From assembly GCA_947652325.1 (NCBI GenBank), contig CANTCQ010000001.1, forward strand, positions 198,725 through 262,724: a DNA stretch of 64,000 nucleotides, given 5' to 3'. A program made the position numbers and the translations under genes. Below the pieces are notes generated by a model, which was given only the letters and a program-made list of their open reading frames with translations, made no database searches and was not told where the DNA came from. Positions 33,718-51,566 of this stretch are shown here, one piece after another; position 1 is the first letter of the stretch; every line of letters begins with the position of its first letter. The DNA is from an uncultured Mycoplasmatota bacterium (GTDB taxonomy: Bacteria > Bacillota_I > Bacilli_A > RF39 > UBA660).

Positions 33718-34065
33718 ATGTATAATGAAAAGAATGAAAAAATATTATTAACTGCACAAGATATTTTTGAAAAAGATTTTAAAATTGATGCGAGAGGATA
33801 TCGTCCTCAAGAAGTTGATAAATTTTTAGATATGATTATTGCCGATTATACTGAATTTAGTGCCATTATAAAAAGACAGGAAAAAGAAATACAATCATTA
33901 ACAAGTGACAATGTGAAGTTGAAACAAGAATATAGTAAACTTCGGAGTCGTTTGGATGCTGCTAGTGATGAAGGAAGTAGTACTAGTAAAAATTCTGTTA
34001 ATAATGTGGACCTTTTAAGAAGAATTAGTCAGTTAGAAAAGGTTGTTTTTGGAAGAAATGAATAA
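33718..34065 (+). CDS. gpsB: cell-cycle protein GpsB (DivIVA domain)
   Basis: LTAQDIFEKDFKIDARGYRPQEVDKFLDMIIADY closely matches the Bacillus GpsB N-terminus. It is followed by rnpB, as in Bacillus. Confidence 0.85.
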   Translation: MYNEKNEKILLTAQDIFEKDFKIDARGYRPQEVDKFLDMIIADYTEFSAIIKRQEKEIQSLTSDNVKLKQEYSKLRSRLDAASDEGSSTSKNSVNNVDLLRRISQLEKVVFGRNE

Positions 34066-34067
34066 TT

Positions 34068-34405
34068 TGTAGGCAAATGCTGCATTATTTTTATGTAGAG
34101 GAAAGTCCATGCTCACACAGTCTGTGATGATTGTAGTGTTCGTGCTTAGGGAAAAAATAACCTAAGGAAAGTTTATCTTTACGGCGAAGAAATTACCTTT
34201 TAACTGGTAAAAGTATTTATAAAGTGCCAAAGAGACGAGTTCTTTTGGAAACGAAAGAAGTGGAACGCGGTAAACCCCACGAGTGAGAAACCCAAATTTT
34301 GGTAGGGGAGCTTTTGCTAGGAATTAGAACGATGCAAAAGACCATTTATGGTAGATAAATATTTGCCACACTCTAGTAGTGTACAGAACATGGCTTATTC
34401 AGGTT
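34068..34405 (+). ncRNA. rnpB: RNase P RNA (bacterial type B)
   Basis: The universal GAGGAAAGTCCATGCTC (P4 5' strand) and ACAGAACATGGCTTA (P4 3' strand) are present, as is CGCGGTAAACCCCACGAGTGAGAAACCC. The ends are approximate. Confidence 0.85.
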
Positions 34406-38524: not shown

Positions 38525-40956
38525 ATGGAAGAAAAGAAAAATTTCCCAACTAGAAAAAGTGTGGGGGGGGGATATTAGATAAAAAGTCCCTAAATAGTCT
38601 AGAAAAGAAAATATTTTTAATTATAAGTATTTTATGTTTTTCAATATTAATAGTAGGAATAACATATGCGTATATAGCATATTATACAAATCAAAAAGGA
38701 ATCAATGTGTTAGAAACAGATTGTGTACATATAGATATGGAAGATTTAAGTGAAGGAATAAGTCTAAGAAATGCTTACCCCTTAACAGATGAACAAGGAT
38801 ATAATACAAAACCATATCGATTTCGTATAACAAATACATGTAATATAGGAGTAGATTATAATGTAAATATAGAAGTATTTGATATAGCAAATAGAATGTC
38901 TAGTAAAAATGTAGCAGCAAAAGTAGACGAGTTTGAAAAGAAAATATTGACAAGTGAAATAAGTACAACTCCTACTTATACTGGAGATGAAGGAACATCA
39001 ATAGAGAGTTATAATGTATATACAAATACACTTTCACCAGGAGAAAGTAAAAGTCATGATATAAGAATATGGTTAGATGAGAGTGCAGGAAATGATTCTC
39101 AAAATAAAGAATTTAAAAGTAAAATAGTAATAGAAGCAATACAAAATCAAATAGCGCAGATGACATTTAGTGAATATATTATAGACCAAAGCAAGTCACA
39201 AGATAGAGGAATAGAGAGAATAGAACATGAAGCAACAGAACAAATTCCGGCTTTAACGGATTATAGATATACAGGAGCAAATCCAAATAATTATGTATAT
39301 TTTGGATGTAGTGAAAATTGTACAGAAGAGAATCTATATCGAATTATAGGAGTAATACCAACACAAAGTAGCGAAAATGGAGCATATGAAAACCGTGTAA
39401 AGTTAATCAAAGCAAGTGAATATATTGGCCCTAATGCTGAGGATGGTTCAAGATTTACTCCAAGTGGAAAAGGATATAAATGGAATGCAGATGGAAATAA
39501 TAAATGGGAAGAAAGTACATTAAAAGAAGAGTTAAACACAGAATACTGGAATAGTTTAGAAGAATATCAAAAATATATAGAACCTTCAAAATGGTATTTA
39601 GGGTCTCCACTTGGTGAGAAACAATCAACATATACTTCTGAACAATTTTATAAAGAAGAGCGAAGCAAAACGCCAGGATATAGTCAGGGAGCAATATCCT
39701 ATATAGATAATATAGGATTAATGTACCCAAGTGATTATGGCTATTCACTAGAAAAAAAATATAGAGAACCATCTATTTATGAAAACGAATTACATTATAG
39801 GAGTCAAGCATGGCTATATAATATGGAAGAAAAATATTATGAATGGACAATAACTCCAGAAAATACAAGTCAGGATTTTGTAAAAGTGTGGGTAGTCGAT
39901 AAACAAGGAAGAATAGATTATTATCGAGCTTATTATGATAATTATTTATTTATTGCCCGACCAACCTTTTATTTAAAGAGTAGTATAATGTATGGGGGAG
40001 GATTAGGTACAAAAGAAGAACCATTTCAAATAATAGAAAATTCCAATCGAATGAGTGATTATATAATAGCAAAAAGTACAACCGATGAGACAATAGAAAA
40101 AGTGAGTCATGAAGCAACAGAACAAACTCCGACTTTAACGGATTATAGATATACAGGAGCAAATCCAAATAATTATGTATGTTTTGGCTATGAAGGAGAA
40201 AGATGTCCAGATGAAAATTTATATCGAATTATAGGAGTAATACCAACGCAAAGTAGCGAAAATGGAGCATATGAAAATCGTGTAAAGTTAATCAAAACAA
40301 GTAATTATGTAGAAAATGAGAGTGGTTATTTAGAAAATAGTATTGGTCCTGCTACTCCAGAAGGAACAGGTTATCGTTGGAATAAAGATGCTAATATTAA
40401 TAATTGGGAAGAGAGTTCATTGAATACTAAAGTTTTAAATAATATATATTGGAACTCTTTAGGAGAATATCAAAAATATATAGAATCATCAAAATGGTAT
40501 TTAGGTTCATTAAACAATGATATGTATGAATTATATACAGTAGGAAATTTATATAATGTAGAAAGAAGCAATGTTTCTTCTTATAGTGGTGGAGCAACAT
40601 TCTACATAAGTAATATTGGTTTAATGTATCCAAGTGATTATGGATATTCCATATCAAAAGAATATTGGAATAATAATAGTATAAGTAATTATCAAAATGA
40701 ATATATAAAAAATGCATGGTTATATAATTTAAGTGGTGGAGAATACGTAGAATGGTTGATTTCTGCTTCACATGATTTTCCAAATGGCAGTGTTTCTGCA
40801 TGGAATATTGGATATACTGGAAATATTTGGGGAGGTTTTAGTGTAATTTATTTTGCTCAAGTGTATGCAATACGTCCTACCTTTTATTTGAAATCTAGTG
40901 TATTATTTCGAGGAGGAGAAGGAACAATAGATAATCCTTATTATTTATCAATATGA
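38525..40956 (+). CDS. phase-variable surface-anchored protein with two tandem modules of about 294 aa, currently frameshifted at a G9 tract
   Basis: The ATG at 38525 follows a GGAGGA RBS. With G9 the reading frame stops at 38576-38578. One extra G joins it to the long ORF (track entry 38707-40956), which is open back to 38572 and encodes the signal anchor KKIFLIISILCFSILIVGITYAYIAYY. Confidence 0.7.
38563..38571 (+). repeat. homopolymeric G9 tract inside the 5' coding region
   Basis: The nine G residues were counted directly from the sequence. Confidence 0.95.
39226..39420 (+). repeat. near-identical internal direct repeat, copy 1 (partner at 40108-40300)
   Basis: CATGAAGCAACAGAACAAA.TCCG.CTTTAACGGATTATAGATATACAGGAGCAAATCCAAATAATTATGTAT and TATATCGAATTATAGGAGTAATACCAAC.CAAAGTAGCGAAAATGGAGCATATGAAAA.CGTGTAAAGTTAATCAAA are shared with copy 2, 882 nt downstream. 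Confidence 0.85.
40108..40300 (+). repeat. near-identical internal direct repeat, copy 2
   Basis: See copy 1 at 39226-39420. Confidence 0.85.
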
Positions 40957-41228: not shown

Positions 41229-41561
41229 ATGAAAAATAATCGTTGTATGGATACAAGTATGTTTCCTGAAACTAATCAAACAACTACGGAAACAAATATA
41301 AATGTTGAAATGGGTATGGGAATGCCTGGAATGATGGGAATGGGTTGCTCATGTCCACCTCAATCTATGATGTGTCCACCTGTTATGGAATGTCCGCAAG
41401 TTAGATGTTGTCATAGAGTTATTAATTATGAAGTACCTCATATTATTCCTTGCCATACAAAAATGATTAATCATCATGTTTATAGACATACTTATCAACC
41501 ATGTTTTAGTTATTCAGAAGAAGACGAATGTTCTGAAGTTTATGACCAAAAATGTTGTTAA
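41229..41561 (+). CDS. Cys/Met/His-rich protein, CotD-like spore coat protein
   Basis: VINYEVPHIIPCHTKMINHHVYRHTYQP resembles the VPHIHP.HT..VNH..F.H motif of Bacillus CotD. The N-terminal half is rich in MGMGMPGMMGMG and Cys. Confidence 0.55.
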   Translation: MKNNRCMDTSMFPETNQTTTETNINVEMGMGMPGMMGMGCSCPPQSMMCPPVMECPQVRCCHRVINYEVPHIIPCHTKMINHHVYRHTYQPCFSYSEEDECSEVYDQKCC

Positions 41562-41590: not shown

Positions 41591-41673
41591 AAATCAAATT
41601 TTGTCAAATTATAGCGCATTTTGTCTTTTTTTCATGTTAGAAAAATGCTATAATAGTTTTTAAGGTGATGGTA

Positions 41674-42009
41674 ATGAATAATAAAGGTTACACAATTCCA
41701 GAATTATTAATTGTTATTGTGATAGTAGGGATTTTTTCTATTGTTGCAATTAATAAAGCAAGTTATGCTTTTGTGGATACAGATACAATTGGAGAGCAAA
41801 CGGAAAAGATGATTTTAGTTAAGAGTGCCACTGCTTATGCAAATAGTATAAAAAATGAATTAAAATCAGATGTTGACCGTTATATTGTAGGAAAAGATTT
41901 AGTAGATGTAGGTTATTTAGTAGATGATGAGCACATATATACAAATGTGAAAGTAAAATTAAGTTATCATGCTGAAAATGATACTGTTTCAGCCAATATT
42001 TTAGAATAA
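41674..42009 (+). CDS. prepilin-type N-terminal cleavage/methylation domain protein (pseudopilin-like)
   Basis: MNNKG|YTIPELLIVIVIVGIFSIVAI has the class III signal with Glu at +5. The RBS is AAGGTGA. Confidence 0.75.
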   Translation: MNNKGYTIPELLIVIVIVGIFSIVAINKASYAFVDTDTIGEQTEKMILVKSATAYANSIKNELKSDVDRYIVGKDLVDVGYLVDDEHIYTNVKVKLSYHAENDTVSANILE

Positions 42010-44216: not shown

Positions 44217-44293
44217 GGGGAATTAGCTCAGCTGGCTAGAGCACCACGTTTGCACCGTGGGGGTCAAGGGTTCGAATCCCTTATTCTCCACCA
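44217..44293 (+). tRNA. tRNA-Ala (anticodon UGC), encoded CCA
   Basis: The acceptor stem GGGGAAT/ATTCTCC carries the G3:U70 identity pair. The anticodon arm is CCACG-TTTGCAC-CGTGG and the T-loop is GGTTCGAATCC. A promoter (TTGCGA-17-TATCAT with TG) lies at 44175-44203. Confidence 0.92.
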
Positions 44294-44461: not shown

Positions 44462-45272
44462 ATGGATAAGATAAAGAATATAGAAAAATATATAGATACA
44501 GTTAAGTTGCATAGTAATTTTTTTAAAAAGTATTATTTTCATTTTAACTAAACTGGATTCTATTTTACACCATGGGATACTATCTAAAAATCTAATTCAA
44601 CAAAAATATTTACCTAGTCTTTATACACATGATGGTCGCGATTTTGATTCAAAAAATGGAAATACTTATGTATCTTTAACTCGATATACAGATAATTGCG
44701 AATTTTCTACTATGTTTGAGTCGTTTCCACTTCATACTTTGACATGTCTATCACTATTAGTAAATAAATCTATTAATGTAGAAAAACAAGGAGAAAGAGA
44801 AACATTTTTTGATGATGAATTGTTTTGTTTGGATTCAATTCCAAATTCAAACCTTGAGGGAATTATTCTTCCTGAACATTTATCTACACTATTAATTAGT
44901 GAAGTTAATTGTTTACCAAATGATCTTTCTTGCTATACTAAATCTTATCTTAATCATTGGATAGATTGTATGCAAAGATATTTTAATACAGCCTTACCGT
45001 ATGAAGTGATTGAAGAGATAAAAGCTAGTCATGAGCAATTATGGGATATTTTAGAAGAGTATGAAAATCCAGATAGATGGGTGCAATCTGCAATTAGAAC
45101 ACAACGTGATCAGTATGGTAAAGATTTAAAAGATGTTCTTGCAAATATATTACAAAACTTATGGTCAAAAAAATTTGATATATCTAATCCAACATATATA
45201 GATGTTTTAATGAGAGTAAATGACAACCAATTACCAGTTTATGAAATAAAGCAGAAAAAACGAATAATTTAA
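44462..45272 (+). pseudogene. hypothetical protein, frameshifted in a T7/A5 run
   Basis: The ATG at 44462 (RBS AGGGGA) reads 29 codons to a TAA. The long downstream frame (track ORF 44712-45272) is open back to 44496. Loss of one T in the run at 44518-44524 would fuse the two frames. Confidence 0.5.
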
Positions 45273-45327: not shown

Positions 45328-45365
45328 TATATTTCGTAGAAGGGTTCGCAACCATTAGAACAATA

Positions 45366-45394
45366 AAAAGAGACGCAAAATAGCGTCTTTTTTT
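45366..45394 (+). terminator. rho-independent terminator
   Basis: Hairpin AGACGC..GCGTCT followed by a T7 run. Confidence 0.65.
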
Positions 45395-45467
45395 ATGCAT
45401 AAATGGTTATTTATTGTCGATTGGTGATATAATAGATTTACGAAGTATCTTTGCAGGAGGTTTAAAA

Positions 45468-46586
45468 ATGAAGGATAATGTTTTTAATATAAATATTTAC
45501 GAAACAGTAGCAAATTCATCAGAATACATACCTATTATTATCGGAGGATTATTTGGATTAACAACTTTAATGTTAGCAGTATTCTCTTTAATAAGTAATG
45601 ATGTAACAAAAAAAACTTCTGGTTTTTCTCTTATCAATCTAAAAAGATATAAAAGATGGCTTTTACTTTTGCCAATATATTTGGTTTTCATAACAACATT
45701 TCTTATGATGTTCTTTGAAAGTCTTAACAATGAAACTTTTTTGTTCATTAGTACAGTTGTAATTATATTAGTGGTTTCTTTACAAACAAACTTTATACTA
45801 CAGCCTTTATATAATCAAAATAAATGTAAACAAGCAATAATTAAAAATAGAGTTAATTCATTCAAGAAAAAAATAAAGAAATCTAAAACGAATAATAAAA
45901 TTGAAGAAATATTAGAGAATGAAAAAGTAGAGCTATTTGACTTGATAGCATTTGATAATGAAGAAAATAAATATGTTTTACTAAATGACAAAAAAATTAT
46001 CTATACTTCATATATCGAAGTTCTTAGAGAAAAGAAAGAATCTATGAATGAAAGTTTAAATATTAGTTTAATAGAAATAGGAATAAATATATTTGGAGAT
46101 GATTTTGTGGATATTTCAAGTGATTTTGAATTTCCTGAAATAATATTACTAGATGTATTTTTAAATAGAAATAAAACAAAATTTAGTATTTCACTACATC
46201 AAAGAAATTTAGAGTTGATTCATACATTGTTTGAATCACATAGGAATGGTGCTCCTATTGAAACAATTTATAATGACGAACAAATAATATTATTTTTAAC
46301 TCAAACTGTTATGAATCCAGAGGCAATGATTTTTATTTTAAATTATATTTTTGATACAGCTAATTGGAGCTATAGCGATTCATCTTTCATCAAGTTCTTA
46401 TTATCTGTTTTTTCAAATTCATTTCATATATTTTCTAAAATGTATGAAACATATCTTAACGAAGAAACATATAAAAGATTTGAAGATATTATGATTAATT
46501 TTAAAAACAAAAAGGAATTGAAAAAAGAAAATGATGAATTTGATATTAGATTTAATTTAATCATTAAAACTTTAAGTGAGGTATAG
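45468..46586 (+). CDS. hypothetical membrane protein (3 N-terminal TM helices plus a cytoplasmic domain)
   Basis: The ATG at 45468 follows an AGGAGG RBS. The hydrophobic segments are IPIIIGGLFGLTTLMLAVFSLI, LLLLPIYLVFITTFLMMFF and FLFISTVVIILVVSL. Confidence 0.55.
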   Translation: MKDNVFNINIYETVANSSEYIPIIIGGLFGLTTLMLAVFSLISNDVTKKTSGFSLINLKRYKRWLLLLPIYLVFITTFLMMFFESLNNETFLFISTVVIILVVSLQTNFILQPLYNQNKCKQAIIKNRVNSFKKKIKKSKTNNKIEEILENEKVELFDLIAFDNEENKYVLLNDKKIIYTSYIEVLREKKESMNESLNISLIEIGINIFGDDFVDISSDFEFPEIILLDVFLNRNKTKFSISLHQRNLELIHTLFESHRNGAPIETIYNDEQIILFLTQTVMNPEAMIFILNYIFDTANWSYSDSSFIKFLLSVFSNSFHIFSKMYETYLNEETYKRFEDIMINFKNKKELKKENDEFDIRFNLIIKTLSEV

Positions 46587-46587
46587 T

Positions 46588-49515
46588 ATGAAAAAAAATT
46601 ATTCTGTATATTATTCGGTTTCTAACGATGAACTAGATAATTTCTATAATGGAGAAAATATTGATTTTAAAATCGATGTTATAGACTTTCTAAGACATAT
46701 AGATAAAAATGATGAGTCATATGAAAAAATGAAACAATGTTATAAAATAAAAACACTTACACAGAAGCAAATTGAAAGATTAAATTTCATACAATATCTT
46801 CATTTTTTATCAAAAAAGGATGATTATAACGCAAAAAAAGTAAAACGCGAATTAAAAAAAGGCTCAATTTATAATGATGATTTTTTATTTGATTTTTGTG
46901 AAGTTGATACATTTGAAGAACATATAAAACTTTTTGATGATAATATAACTAGTGGAAAAATAATCAAAAGTATTTATAAAAATAAGTTTCACAAAAGTAA
47001 TATGGAATATTTATATATGGAAAATTTAAATAGAGAAGCAAATGTATTTAACGATAAATATTTAGAGAAAAAAATTAAAAAGCATATGATTCGAATTTTG
47101 AAAAAAGAAAAACTAACAATCCTAGAATTTTTGTATATATGGCAAATAATTATTTTAGTTAAAGCTCATTTTGTTGCTTTAAAGTTTATGCGTGACGAAT
47201 TATTTCTTGATGCTATGTTGGTAGAAAAAGCATTAAATAAATTTATAGTGTTTAAAAACAATTACTCAAATGTTTTTTCAAAAAAACAAATAATTGATTT
47301 TAATGAAACCATTGTTTCAATTTATAGATTACTGGGTAGTAGAATAAATATTTCTGAAGATGACTTTAAAGAAAATCAAAAAAAGTGTGTTAAATTTATT
47401 GATAGTAATGCTAGTTTGTTAAATCGTAATACAGTTTTTCTTAAAACAATATTTAATGGTGGAAAAATTAGTAAAGACAAAGTAATCAGTGAGATAAAAG
47501 ATATCTTAAATAATAAGTCATCTGGAGAAGTTATGTATTTAGCCTTTCTTGGAACTAGTGAATTAAAACCTGAACAATACACTTCTTATATCCAAGAATT
47601 AGAAAATATACAATATGATAAATCAAAAATAGAAGAAATTAATTTACAATCTTTAAACTTTGCGATAGAAATAATTAAATTCTGGAGTGGTGGTAAATTT
47701 AATCTAACCTTTTTAAAATCTAATATGTATTTAGACCCCTTTTTAAGATTGTGTTTTGAATATGATAATCAAAATATTAATTATAATCAATTTCTCGACA
47801 GATTAAATGGGATAAATTATATACCAGTTTCTATAATATTAGATTGGAATAGATTAGAAAAAATGTTTGAAAAAACAAATTCTTATGAATGGTTTAAAAA
47901 AATTGTTAGCAAAATGGATTACGATGAATTAAAATATTTTAGATTAAAAAGTTATTTAATTAATTTCTATTCCAAAATCATACATAAGGATAATGTATTA
48001 TTACTTAGCAATTTTTCGGAAATGGATTCTTTTATTAGAACAATATTTGATGACATTATTTATTTATACTATTCTATTATTATCCATATCAATGTTTATA
48101 GAAATTTTGATAAAAGTGTAAAAGAATCAATAATAACTATCATTCAAGATTTCAATATCTTAGAGAAAACCTTGACAGATAAACAATACCTTATTGAATT
48201 TGTGTATCTTCTAGTATCACTAAGTATTGAGTCCGAAGATAAGGATTTGAAAGAATCACTTCTAGAACTAATCATTAATAATGATATATTAAAAGATAAT
48301 AATATATTGATATTCGGATTGACTTATGACAATGATAAAGTGTTGTTAAAACATTATGATTCAATATTTGACTCGATTTTAAATTACTATAATGACATTA
48401 AGAATGTAAATAAAAATGATTATATGTTAATATCTCAAATTACTTATAATTCTTTAACGAATCGCGTTAATATCAATGAAATTCCTAAGAATCATTATTT
48501 TTCTAAAAATGGTAAGAATTATATTTTAAAAAATGATTATGACGATAATTTAAAAGATTTATATACTGATTTAAAAATCGAAAAAATTGAAGAGACATCA
48601 GATGATATGGTAGAATATAACCTTCTAGACCTCCTAACTCATAGGATATTCTTTGCTAATGTTGAAAAAATGAAAGCAGGAAAAGTTATTAAAACCTCAA
48701 AAGATGTAACTGGAGAAGAATTACTAAAAGAAATGGAAAAAGCAATTGGTTATGATAAAACACGAAAAGACCTAGAACTTATTCGCTCTGGAAAATCTTT
48801 AAGTTCAGTATGGTTTAATATTTATACAATGCACAATTACTTTAAAGATGTTGAGCAAGCTAATACAAAAATGTTTAATAATTCGAGAAATGAATTGATT
48901 AGAGTAGATAATGCATTGTTACACTTTTCATCATTAATTCTAGCTGTAAAATTAGGTTTGAAGGACATAATATTAAGTGATGATAGAATGTTTATTACTA
49001 GTTCAGTATATGAAGATTTAATGTATCAAAAAACATTTGAAATATCAGAATTAACTGATGGTATAATTGAACCTAGAATTAATTATGATGATTTGTTTGA
49101 TAATGTATGTATTTTAGTAAGTGAGATGAACGATAAATCAAGAGTAATCAGCATTACAAAAGCAAACATTATGGGAACAAAACATATAGATTATATAAAT
49201 AAATATGACCAAGACTTATTTAAATTCTTTGTAAATACTAATGATAGCAATAGATATTTCCTTATTACTGAAGACCCATTTTATTATAAAGTAGATGGTT
49301 TTAAGGAAAGGTCATTTAGTTTATATAGTTATGTAGTAGAAAAATTTATTCAAAATGATATTGATAGTGTTAGATTGTTGGAAATAACTGAAAAATTATA
49401 TTTTTGCAATTATAACTTCAATGTGAGTAAGAGTTTATTCAATTTTTTATTAGAAAAATCGGATGATGATAATATACGAAAAATTATAGAAAAAATAAAA
49501 ACCTCTGTAATATAG
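46588..49515 (+). CDS. large hypothetical protein (about 975 aa), mostly helical, with possible C-terminal PIN-like region
   Basis: The start is 2 nt after the upstream stop. No Walker motifs are present. There is an R-x6-H motif (RVDNALLH). The C-terminal part has IILSDDRMF, SVYEDL and YFLITEDPFY, which resemble PIN acidic motifs. This is a weak call made by eye. Confidence 0.55.
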   Translation: MKKNYSVYYSVSNDELDNFYNGENIDFKIDVIDFLRHIDKNDESYEKMKQCYKIKTLTQKQIERLNFIQYLHFLSKKDDYNAKKVKRELKKGSIYNDDFLFDFCEVDTFEEHIKLFDDNITSGKIIKSIYKNKFHKSNMEYLYMENLNREANVFNDKYLEKKIKKHMIRILKKEKLTILEFLYIWQIIILVKAHFVALKFMRDELFLDAMLVEKALNKFIVFKNNYSNVFSKKQIIDFNETIVSIYRLLGSRINISEDDFKENQKKCVKFIDSNASLLNRNTVFLKTIFNGGKISKDKVISEIKDILNNKSSGEVMYLAFLGTSELKPEQYTSYIQELENIQYDKSKIEEINLQSLNFAIEIIKFWSGGKFNLTFLKSNMYLDPFLRLCFEYDNQNINYNQFLDRLNGINYIPVSIILDWNRLEKMFEKTNSYEWFKKIVSKMDYDELKYFRLKSYLINFYSKIIHKDNVLLLSNFSEMDSFIRTIFDDIIYLYYSIIIHINVYRNFDKSVKESIITIIQDFNILEKTLTDKQYLIEFVYLLVSLSIESEDKDLKESLLELIINNDILKDNNILIFGLTYDNDKVLLKHYDSIFDSILNYYNDIKNVNKNDYMLISQITYNSLTNRVNINEIPKNHYFSKNGKNYILKNDYDDNLKDLYTDLKIEKIEETSDDMVEYNLLDLLTHRIFFANVEKMKAGKVIKTSKDVTGEELLKEMEKAIGYDKTRKDLELIRSGKSLSSVWFNIYTMHNYFKDVEQANTKMFNNSRNELIRVDNALLHFSSLILAVKLGLKDIILSDDRMFITSSVYEDLMYQKTFEISELTDGIIEPRINYDDLFDNVCILVSEMNDKSRVISITKANIMGTKHIDYINKYDQDLFKFFVNTNDSNRYFLITEDPFYYKVDGFKERSFSLYSYVVEKFIQNDIDSVRLLEITEKLYFCNYNFNVSKSLFNFLLEKSDDDNIRKIIEKIKTSVI

Positions 49516-49522
49516 ATAAAAG

Positions 49523-49547
49523 CATTTCTATTGTGAAATGTTTTTTT
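49523..49547 (+). terminator. rho-independent terminator
   Basis: Hairpin CATTTC..GAAATG followed by a T7 run. Confidence 0.6.
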
Positions 49548-50128: not shown

Positions 50129-50232
50129 ATGGAAAACTCGCTCCTCTCTACTTGATTTTCGAAATTATTTACTGTACAATAAATACGGAAATGCGAAATA
50201 ACAAATAAAATATTTCATAAAACCTAAATTAA

Positions 50233-50385
50233 GTTTATTGCAAAAAACTAAATCAAAGTGATTTAGCCAATTTAACAGGTATTTCTTTATCAACATTAAG
50301 TCCATACTTTTCAGCAGAAGCAGAATCTAAAATAAGTACTTTAATTAAGATAGAAAGTGCTTTAACGTGTAGAATATCCAAATAA
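50233..50385 (+). pseudogene. XRE-type HTH gene fragment lacking a start
   Basis: KKLNQSDLANLTGISLSTLSPYFSAEAESKISTLIKIESAL is a recognisable HTH, but it is bounded by a stop codon at 50230-50232. Confidence 0.4.
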
Positions 50386-50386
50386 A

Positions 50387-50473
50387 ATGCCAAGAATTAT
50401 TGAAGATTATTTATTAACAACAAAATTATTTTGTGGATATTGTAAAGAAATGAAGGTCGAATTTTATAAATAA
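50387..50473 (+). pseudogene. possible large-serine-recombinase zinc-ribbon fragment (28 aa)
   Basis: TKLFCGYCKEM resembles the CxxC knuckle of the recombinase zinc-ribbon domain. The fragment is isolated. Confidence 0.3.
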
Positions 50474-50488
50474 AAGGGAGAATTCAAT

Positions 50489-50779
50489 ATGTCACGTGAA
50501 GATGAATTTAAAATGTTAGTTGGCGGATATTTTGGAATTGAAGAAATGGACGAGTATAAATTAAAATTGTATGTACTACAAGAAATAGAAGAATATATAA
50601 AGAAGTTAATATTAGAAAATTTTGTTGAAAATTTTGAGTATAGAAAAGAAGCAGAAAGTATAAAAAATGATCTTTCTTTAAAAAGAAAATTGCAAGATAG
50701 TTTACTTACTTTAAGAAAAATAGATGGACCACTTGATTTGATTTTATTAATAAAAAATAAAATTTATGAATTGGATTAA
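50489..50779 (+). CDS. hypothetical protein
   Basis: 96-aa ORF with a GGGAGA RBS. Confidence 0.45.
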   Translation: MSREDEFKMLVGGYFGIEEMDEYKLKLYVLQEIEEYIKKLILENFVENFEYRKEAESIKNDLSLKRKLQDSLLTLRKIDGPLDLILLIKNKIYELD

Positions 50780-50852
50780 ATTTTTATTTCTGATAAAAAT
50801 ATTGAGTAAAAAATATTAAACTATTGAAAATAAAGAGAAAGGAAGAACAGGA

Positions 50853-51566
50853 ATGATAGATTACCAAAAAATACAAATGGAAATCAAAGCGTTAGAAAAA
50901 AGTAATTTGTATCAATCAGAACAATTGGAAACTATTAAATATGCTATGTATGCAATAAAAGATAGAGATTTTTTATATTTACTTACAGACCCTTCTATTC
51001 CAAATGAATTTATGACAATGTATATTTCATTGAATACAAGAAAAATAAATGTAAAAAAGTATATAGAAGAAAAATGGCATGAAAAAGGATTTGATTCAAA
51101 ACAATTATATGAATTAATATTAGCAGATAGTAAAGGTTATGACATAAGTGAAGTTGATTTGAATGACTCTGTAGAAAAAATAAGTGAAATTTTAAATCAT
51201 CAAATAGCACAAAAAAAATTAAAAGAAAAATATGAAGTTTCTTCCTTATCTAGTGAAGAATTACTAAAACTAAAAAAGATTGGATTTGCTCCTAATGTAG
51301 CTATTTTTTTATTACGAATAGCTGAGGAGTATGAGATAGAAAGTTTACTTGATGAAAAATTAAAAGACTGTACTTTAGAACAAATGAAATATTTAGTTAG
51401 TGTCTATACTACAGGAGTTTCTATAGAGGCTATTAAAAATTCGAATTTAAGTGTAGAGGAAATGAAAGAAATAGTATTACATTTTAAAGATTCGGTAAAT
51501 TTTTTAAATTCAGTTCGCCAAAGTAGAGATGATAGAAGAAAAGAAAGCTTTATATTTAGGCGTTAA
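50853..51566 (+). CDS. hypothetical helical-repeat protein
   Basis: 237-aa ORF with an AAAGGAAG RBS. No motif recognised. Confidence 0.45.
   Translation: MIDYQKIQMEIKALEKSNLYQSEQLETIKYAMYAIKDRDFLYLLTDPSIPNEFMTMYISLNTRKINVKKYIEEKWHEKGFDSKQLYELILADSKGYDISEVDLNDSVEKISEILNHQIAQKKLKEKYEVSSLSSEELLKLKKIGFAPNVAIFLLRIAEEYEIESLLDEKLKDCTLEQMKYLVSVYTTGVSIEAIKNSNLSVEEMKEIVLHFKDSVNFLNSVRQSRDDRRKESFIFRR

Follow-up and report, generated by a model that had tools for sequence, protein, structure and literature searches.

KwaA, the membrane protein of the Kiwa defence system, has four transmembrane (TM) helices, and its partner KwaB is a DUF4868 protein. KwaA tetramers are bound to KwaB dimers (PMC11785009). 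Kiwa (PMC11785009) and Zorya (PMC11946911) follow an established logic in which a sensor embedded in the membrane is combined with a soluble effector that is a nuclease or binds DNA, and PIN nucleases are validated defence effectors (PMC13092281). Here, a pair of genes is described from a stretch of 64,000 nucleotides (nt) of contig CANTCQ010000001.1, hereafter the window, of an uncultured bacterium. Gene A (45468-46586, + strand) encodes a membrane protein of 372 amino acids (aa). Gene B (46588-49515, + strand) encodes a 975-aa protein, which is predicted to be an alpha-solenoid with a PIN-like tail. The two genes could be a previously undescribed anti-phage or anti-mobile-element system, a proposal that stands at about an even chance.

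The pair resembles Kiwa in layout. Both are operons of two genes, the first for a small multi-pass membrane protein and the second for a larger soluble protein, known or putative effector, and both are seen in defence islands. The proposed logic is also alike: a membrane complex would sense infection-linked membrane events, and the soluble partner would act on nucleic acid. The proteins themselves are different. Protein A here combines three TM helices with a cytoplasmic domain of 260 aa, and the 975 aa of protein B are predicted to form a solenoid that ends in a PIN-like domain. The KwaA and KwaB models of PADLOC match neither A nor B, nor any of 20 members of the B family and 7 members of the A family. 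Zorya, with its ZorAB membrane complex and ZorC/ZorD effectors, shares with the proposed system membrane-anchored sensing, a soluble nuclease effector and the location in defence islands. However, Zorya has four genes and a MotAB-like proton-driven motor, while the present pair has two genes without any peptidoglycan-binding or motor domain, and no PADLOC or Pfam match relates A or B to ZorA/ZorB, ZorC/D or ZorE.

The tail of B has a weak likeness to the PIN nucleases VapC and PAE2754 in its predicted fold and, compared by eye, is similar to them in the order and spacing of residues, including T-x-D after the last core strand. The PIN-like domain is also the likeness to the PIN-containing defence systems DS-3 and DS-5 (PMC13092281). 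Unlike in PIN nucleases, no profile similarity is seen, the place of the first Asp is taken by His, Thr, Gln or Ser in all members, and there are two extra invariant acids (positions 876 and 895). Unlike in VapBC, where the toxin is a protein of ~130 aa, the domain here forms the end of a solenoid protein of 975 aa, and the upstream partner has three TM helices and no DNA-binding domain. The Hydrolase-3TM type system, reportedly described from P2/P4 hotspots by Rousset and colleagues in 2022, is said to consist of two genes, for a 3-TM protein and a hydrolytic enzyme. The two-gene layout and the combination of a 3-TM protein with a hydrolytic enzyme are similar, but sizes, fold and host range (enterobacterial, against very low-G+C Bacillota here) are not. 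Neither A nor B has an above-threshold match in PADLOC-DB 2.0, where the presence of Hydrolase-3TM models was left unchecked. Membership in Kiwa, Zorya or the PIN-containing defence systems is denied because every homology test failed. The pair also lacks the hallmarks of VapBC toxin-antitoxin modules, HEPN nucleases and STAND NTPases.

The operon and its two proteins

Two co-directional open reading frames (ORFs) on the + strand, 45414-46586 and 46576-49515, occupy 45.4-49.5 kb of the window. The credible start of gene A is ATG 45468, which gives the same length, 372 aa, as that of the database protein P0004; its stop is TAG at 46584-46586. A ribosome-binding site (RBS), AGGAGG, is read at 45455-45460 (+ strand), 7 nt 5' of this ATG. 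Gene B starts with ATG 46588, 1 nt beyond the TAG of gene A, and its own RBS, read as GAGG at 46578-46581 (+ strand), lies within the 3' end of gene A. This position suggests translational coupling of the two genes. Both can be considered as real genes and not chance ORFs because full-length homologues exist at 19-61% identity.

Hairpins border the two genes on both sides. The upstream one, at 45363-45396, has an RNA fold of -17.1 kcal/mol (z = -8.2, with 0/200 shuffles as good). It is likely a bidirectional intrinsic terminator because A/T runs flank both sides, and it would close the upstream gene and insulate the operon. The downstream one begins 3 nt past the stop of gene B. The sequence 49518-49545 folds with -9.9 kcal/mol (z = -4.3, again with 0/200 shuffles as good) and U7 comes next, so that hairpin and U-run together extend over 49518-49547 on the + strand and would close the operon. 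A terminator pattern scan called only the upstream hairpin, on the - strand; the downstream hairpin was missed because it has too few G-C pairs for the scan.

Behind the upstream terminator, a perfect match to the extended -10 promoter element, TGATATAAT, is read at 45425-45433 (+ strand), 35 nt 5' of the gene A start, with no good -35 element seen. In L001 and L003, two homologous loci, the equivalent position, also behind a terminator, is occupied by TGGTATAAT and TGGTACAAT, and the layout of terminator, TGnTAnAAT, RBS and gene A is the same in these loci and in the window. TGATATAAT is the probable promoter of gene A. The pair is predicted to be a self-contained, autonomous operon, composed of terminator, promoter, RBS, A, B with a coupled start, and terminator.

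Hydropathy of protein A indicates three TM segments (residues ~20-43, 63-86 and 90-112), followed by ~260 soluble residues. In the family alignments, loop 1 is basic and highly conserved (SNDVTKKTSGFSLINLKRY), and no conserved enzyme-like polar motif is found in the soluble domain. Basic residues are concentrated in loop 1 and just after TM3. Because the positive-inside rule is applied to these residues, the short N-terminus is placed outside, and loop 1 and the C-terminal domain of ~260 aa would be cytoplasmic. Protein A has no match in Pfam, PADLOC or PDB sequences. A profile of diverse A proteins retrieves 29 database clusters, of which none is annotated; all are 330-388 aa in length except two fragments.

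Protein B contains no convincing TM segment by hydropathy. An AlphaFold2 model of the full protein, built on an alignment of 20 sequences, has a mean predicted local distance difference test (pLDDT) value of 88.6 and a predicted template-modelling score (pTM) of 0.74. In the model, residues 1-625 (46588-48462, + strand) form an all-helical alpha-solenoid of ~36 helices, proposed to be a scaffold or sensor. When full B is compared with the PDB by Foldseek, all matches are unspecific ones to solenoids of the HEAT, TPR and ARM types (E >= 2e-3, TM-score <= 0.22). Residues 636-757 (48493-48858, + strand) are modelled as a beta-hairpin/helix module (636-690) and then a helical linker, with helices at residues 709-757, and this region carries the conserved motif F-x-N-I-E-K-x-x-A-G-K. 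Residues 775-975 (48910-49515, + strand) are predicted, by the model and by Foldseek, to be a PIN-like alpha/beta domain with C-terminal helices.

Two observations concern the beta-hairpin module. Residues 648-702 (48529-48693) give a weak sub-threshold signal of PF24021, "Phage ACT-like domain" (ACT_phage; E = 0.0026), in 2/18 members. Located N-terminal to the PIN-like domain, this signal could be a ligand-binding switch, or noise. The sequence EKMKAGKV was considered as a Walker A motif and rejected: V, I, K, L or M is found in place of S/T after GK, the conserved A-G-K sits in a loop of the module, and no NTPase profile matches. A P-loop NTPase, as in the STAND/NTPase conflict systems with TPR sensors, is not seen in any family match.

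When residues 628-975 are modelled alone, the pLDDT is 88.0. The best match of this model in the PDB, a weak one, is the PIN domain PAE2754 (PDB 1v8o; E = 0.059, prob 0.96, target TM-score (TMt) 0.59), covering B residues ~775-945. Nmd4, 3ix7, SMG6/EST1A and the Rrp44 PIN domain are the other best fold matches in the PDB. The top match in BFVD is also a PIN-domain protein (E = 0.09). The tail is labelled only as PIN-like in predicted fold, and is not assigned as a member of the PIN family, because no PIN signal is present at the sequence level.

Six residues are candidates for the active site based on conservation: H779 (48922-48924), D810 (49015-49017), D874 (49207-49209), D876 (49213-49215), E895 (49270-49272) and D896 (49273-49275), all on the + strand. 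Conservation was counted over 19 members of the B family. D874 is D in 19/19, position 876 is D or E in 19/19, and position 895 is E or D in 19/19. D896 is D in 18/19 and E in 1/19. N768 and N860 are kept in 18/19 and 16/19, respectively. At position 779, 15 members have H, two have T, and Q and S are found in one member each; position 810 is D or E in 14/19. The series H779...D810...D874...T894-x-D896 parallels D7...E42...D98...T-x-[D/N]116 of Shigella VapC in order and spacing, as mapped by eye; the VapC sequence used was verified to be identical to PDB 3tnd. Such an invariant cluster of acids speaks for an active site that depends on metal.

A first-pass annotation of this DNA had described a two-gene operon bracketed by terminators, with a membrane protein of three N-terminal TM helices and a cytoplasmic domain, and a largely helical protein of roughly 975 aa without Walker or similar motifs. 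The folds of the two hairpins, the ORFs with their RBSs, the hydropathy of A, the solenoid model of B and the absence of any NTPase or other family match of B all agree with this description. The four motifs quoted from the C-terminal part of B are present where that annotation had placed them, with RVDNALLH at residues 772-779 (nt 48901-48924). The weight given to RVDNALLH as an R-x6-H motif is lost: R772 is seen in 1/19, and the segment is a beta-strand in the model. It is therefore rejected as a HEPN motif; H779 itself is kept in 15/19, but at the end of a beta-strand and not in a helical domain, as R-x4-6-H of HEPN would be. Among the motifs taken as PIN-like acidic motifs, YFLITEDPFY holds E895 and D896 and stands. 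SVYEDL, which holds the semi-conserved second acid, stands less strictly. IILSDDRMF is discarded as a catalytic motif, since D798 is D in only 6/19 and its neighbours are variable. The suggestion of a PIN-like C-terminus survives at the fold level, where the best matches in PDB and BFVD are PIN domains, but not in sequence profiles or at the first Asp.

Distribution and genomic company of the pair

The family is small. An exhaustive profile search of 1.84 billion clusters (1.84e9) yields 24 representatives of B relatives, of which ~17 are full length (918-975 aa) and colinear. A word-indexed search of 5.8 billion clusters yields only three B and three A relatives. Searches with A and B, as well as with 20 B-family and 7 A-family members, give nothing above noise in Pfam, NCBIfam, PHROGs, PADLOC and PDB sequences, and PDB sequence-profile searches with B are empty. 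There is no match to the pair family among the GTDB species representatives (2 scans), in the viral contigs of IMG/VR, or, by tblastn, in the PLSDB plasmids and INPHARED phages. This rare and patchy distribution rules out a housekeeping role. The nearest homologues are in metagenome-assembled genomes labelled "Bacilli bacterium".

A homologue of A is directly upstream of B in 9/9 contexts examined. It is a 3-TM protein of 350-379 aa and demonstrably homologous to A. The nine contexts span the full depth of the family, with B identity to the window B of 19-51%: 51% in L001 and L002, 50% in L003, 35% in L011, 29% in L014, ~25% in L021 and L024, 24% in L017 and 19% in L036. The contig of another relative, L004, terminates just within B. 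The junction between A and B ranges from an 11-nt gap to a 20-nt overlap in these relatives. Pairwise identities of A and of B co-vary with r = 0.97, a value inflated by shared phylogeny. No third gene is common to all contexts. Besides the tRNA-Ala gene, no conserved flank is seen between the window and L001-L004.

Neighbouring genes were called from Pfam annotation and a PADLOC scan. Known defence genes are found within 10 kb in six of the seven contexts with usable flanks, the window being the exception; this is a raw count from a small sample of seven lineages and comes without a background rate. The pair in L011 is accompanied by a type IIG restriction-modification enzyme (E = 0) and a HEC-05/GmrSD-like protein. 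The neighbours in L014 are an IS605 TnpB, AbiEii (1e-79) and RhuM. L017 has a Dcm methylase, a Sau3AI/MutH-like type II restriction enzyme (1e-86), DpdF-like and NERD helicases, a MazG-like protein and a SLFN-type helicase. A ThsB-TIR protein is seen in L024, two GmrSD/HEC-06 proteins in L021, and a NERD-helicase-like gene in L036.

L021 and another contig, L022, have a common block of 98% identity, composed of a 3' tRNA fragment, a tyrosine integrase, A and B, and the DNA upstream of the block is wholly different between them. The tRNA fragment (…GGTCGTAAGTTCGAGTCTTACCCCCGCAACCA) is at 8280-8330 in L021 and at 8280-8330 in L022, at the left edge of the block. L021 continues into excisionase-like, replication, relaxase and methylase genes. 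The tRNA fragment marks the attachment (att) site end of an integrative mobilisable element that targets tRNA genes, and this element carries the pair as cargo, at its integrase end. This arrangement matches that of the window, where the pair follows tRNA-Ala(UGC) (44217-44293) and mobile-element remnants lie downstream, and that of L001, where the pair is directly after tRNA-Ala and starts 150 nt beyond it.

Some flanking genes of the relatives were considered separately. MutT-like NUDIX genes with 38% mutual identity adjoin the pair in L011 (12961-13344) and are one gene away from it in L017 (7754-8125). They are rejected as an associated gene: they lie on opposite sides of the pair and are absent from the other clades, and the copy in L021 is unrelated. 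In L017, the gene of a metallophosphatase also precedes A, at a distance of 25 nt. The NUDIX and metallophosphatase genes are probably flank markers.

L004 contains the closest relative of A outside the species (61% identity). In this contig, a 117-aa gene of an XRE-family helix-turn-helix (HTH) protein (261-614) shares 17 nt with the start of the A homologue, an arrangement that points to a transcriptional regulator joined to the pair in this lineage. The window, in comparison, has an HTH only as a remnant, downstream of the pair.

The earlier annotation had placed the pair in a defence island, next to decayed HTH and recombinase fragments. The island is borne out by the relatives (six of the seven contexts) and not by the window itself. 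As for the fragments, the XRE-type HTH is upheld by a profile match (E = 3.6e-7), while the recombinase is a resemblance by eye that no profile match backs. As to the checks proposed there, profile searches with A and B and structure searches with B point to no housekeeping or other known family, and A accompanies B in 9/9 contexts. Overall, the observation of the earlier annotation is confirmed, and its interpretation is partly supported.

Proposed mechanism and alternative explanations

If the pair is a defence system, it may work as follows. Protein A would be in the membrane with its N-terminus out, three TM helices, and the basic loop and the helical domain of ~260 aa in the cytoplasm, and would hold protein B at the membrane as a complex. 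The alpha-solenoid of ~625 residues could be a scaffold or recognition surface, and the C-terminal PIN-like domain the effector nuclease, with D874, D/E876, E/D895 and D896 as its metal site and H779 in place of the first canonical Asp. The cue may come through A, which would sense an infection-linked change at the membrane, or through the solenoid, to which a phage protein or nucleic acid would bind. Such a cue would unlock the nuclease, which would cleave RNA (most likely) or DNA, and phage development would be halted, possibly at the expense of the cell. It can be speculated, tentatively and at somewhat below an even chance, that this is a new system confined to uncultured very low-G+C Bacillota, in which a dedicated three-pass membrane protein holds and gates the solenoid protein, the nuclease domain of the latter is a novel offshoot of the PIN fold with a His/Asp/Asp/Glu/Asp active site, and membrane events are directly coupled to nucleic-acid cleavage without an NTPase or second messenger.

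Several facts weigh against this proposal. No recognised defence gene was found within 10 kb of the pair in the window, and no gain or loss of the pair is seen within the species among the sampled strains. The count of defence neighbours comes from the few lineages described above. The pair follows capsule/polysaccharide biosynthesis genes in L014 and L024. Gene order and co-variation are what points to an interaction of A and B. The PIN fold scores are weak, none of them being <= 1e-3 in PDB or BFVD, and are consistent across both. No match to the Pfam PIN clan was obtained with 20 full-length members at E <= 0.1 or with 18 C-terminal domains at E <= 10. The alignment of the B family profile with VapC by hhalign has a probability of 0.05%, that is, nothing. 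The first canonical PIN Asp, after beta1, is never acidic in the 19 members, being mostly His779, and the second PIN acid (810) is acidic only in 14/19. Given these changes at the first two acid positions, the PIN-like domain of B could be non-catalytic.

A system with reversed roles would follow from a non-catalytic tail. Here, B would be only the sensor, whose solenoid and degenerate PIN-like domain bind a phage protein or nucleic acid, and A would be the effector that kills or arrests the cell by permeabilisation or depolarisation of the membrane. The loss of the first Asp in all members and the variable second acid are what this explanation expects, and Nmd4 and EST1A, whose PIN domains are generally regarded as non-catalytic binding modules, are among the best structural matches. 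Protein A has three conserved TM helices and a soluble domain without any enzyme-like conserved polar motif, and abortive-infection systems often use small TM effectors. Both explanations share the defence context. Against the reversed roles, D874, D/E876, E/D895, D896, N768 and N860 are invariant or nearly so even at 19% identity, a conservation that is difficult to account for unless they belong to a metal or catalytic site, and the cytoplasmic domain of A, ~260 aa, far exceeds the need of a simple pore-former. This explanation is considered unlikely.

The pair might instead serve the mobile element that carries it, either as an addiction or stabilisation pair composed of a nuclease toxin and a membrane-bound restraint, or in an exclusion function for the carrier element. 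In L021 and L022 its immediate neighbour is the integrase of an integrative mobilisable element that targets tRNA genes, it adjoins tRNA-Ala in L001 and, with mobile-element remnants, in the window, and it adjoins IS605 TnpB in L014; PIN is also the classic fold of VapC toxins. However, the pair is unlike type II toxin-antitoxin modules, as it has no small DNA-binding antitoxin, a "toxin" of 975 aa and a membrane protein of 372 aa as the partner. In L011, L014, L017 and L024 the pair is surrounded by chromosomal defence genes, and no integrase is seen over 10 kb. Since defence cargo is common on mobile elements, this explanation overlaps with the proposal of a defence system. On its own, it is quite improbable.

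A horizontally acquired accessory function outside conflict, such as membrane-associated RNA processing or turnover or a role in the envelope or in polysaccharides, has only a slight probability: it accords with the capsule/polysaccharide genes ahead of the pair in L014 and L024, the GT2 glycosyltransferase located 3 kb downstream in the window, the window without recognised defence neighbours and the fixation of the pair in all sampled strains, but the distribution is extremely sparse and patchy, the flanks differ in each lineage, known defence genes recur near the pair in six of seven contexts, hot spots of insertion are common where polysaccharide loci end, and neither protein resembles a glycan enzyme or transporter.

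The island in the window and the meaning of the pair

The pair is located in an island of low G+C content. The G+C trough extends over 45-52 kb with 0.22-0.26, compared with 0.29-0.32 in the preceding 10 kb and 0.27-0.31 beyond. On its left side, the tRNA-Ala gene follows rpoZ. No direct repeat of the 3' end of tRNA-Ala, which would be an att site, is present within 44.1-56 kb. All sampled contigs that have the identical rpoZ and reach past tRNA-Ala carry the same downstream genes, or the island, and no empty-site strain of the same species was found among the contigs with identical rpoZ.

A frameshifted-looking gene (44462-45272) lies between the tRNA and the operon, and a 186-aa ORF (44712-45272) is its apparent tail. 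ATG 44462 opens MDKIKNIEKY..., and a stop comes ~90 nt on, just past a T/A homopolymer run (~44519-44530). The reading continues in another frame (…ILHHGILSKNL…VSLTRY…) into the 186-aa ORF, which has no family match. The 186-aa ORF is rejected as a third component of the system: it is absent from L001 and all other clades.

Downstream of the pair, the XRE-type HTH remnant (50230-50460) matches HTH_3 (E = 3.6e-7) over 47 aa and is without a start codon. A fragment of 28 aa, MPRIIEDYLLTTKLFCGYCKEMKVEFYK, adjoins it and resembles the zinc-ribbon region of serine recombinases, by eye only; a profile search with the recombinase-like remnant LLTTKLFCGYCKEMK (28 aa) gave no match. Orphan ORFs of 96 aa and 237 aa (50489-51566) share the trough. 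The 237-aa ORF has a weak PADLOC match to a CARF-HEPN model (E = 5e-4, residues 169-225), the sole hint of defence in the island, and this region might be a second small accessory module.

Other genes in the window give information on the host. RNase P RNA of class B (34065-34401, 283.7 bits) places the host in the low-G+C Gram-positive bacteria, and the host appears to be a very low-G+C member of Bacillota. A Cys/Met/Pro-rich protein of 110 aa (41229-41561) has a sub-threshold match to CotD, an inner spore coat protein (PF11122, E = 0.0012, 19.8 bits compared with the cut-off of 22), which hints that the organism forms spores. A protein of 749 aa (38707-40956) without Pfam match is composed of two internally duplicated halves of ~300 aa each, and the signature …ATEQ[IT]P[AT]LTDYRYTGANPNNYV…IGLMYPSDYGYS… appears in it twice. 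Its gene overlaps a 60-aa XRE HTH gene by 4 nt and lies upstream of a pilin-like gene (41665-42009), which carries an N_methyl motif, and a DUF2779 gene.

If confirmed, A and B would be two new protein families, without annotation in a collection of ~15 billion proteins. The pair would add a membrane-coupled nuclease system to the short list of those sensing infection at the envelope (Kiwa, Zorya and Tmn), and would be a compact two-protein example from Gram-positive uncultured bacteria of gut or digester, which are barely sampled by experimental screens. Its divergent PIN-like active site, with His for the first Asp, would be testable by point mutations. The case also indicates that a confident structure prediction from ~20 metagenomic homologues can yield a testable mechanism for an orphan protein. 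The pair is a new and credible candidate for a defence system whose general kind is familiar, and it is rare and seen only in uncultured low-G+C bacteria.

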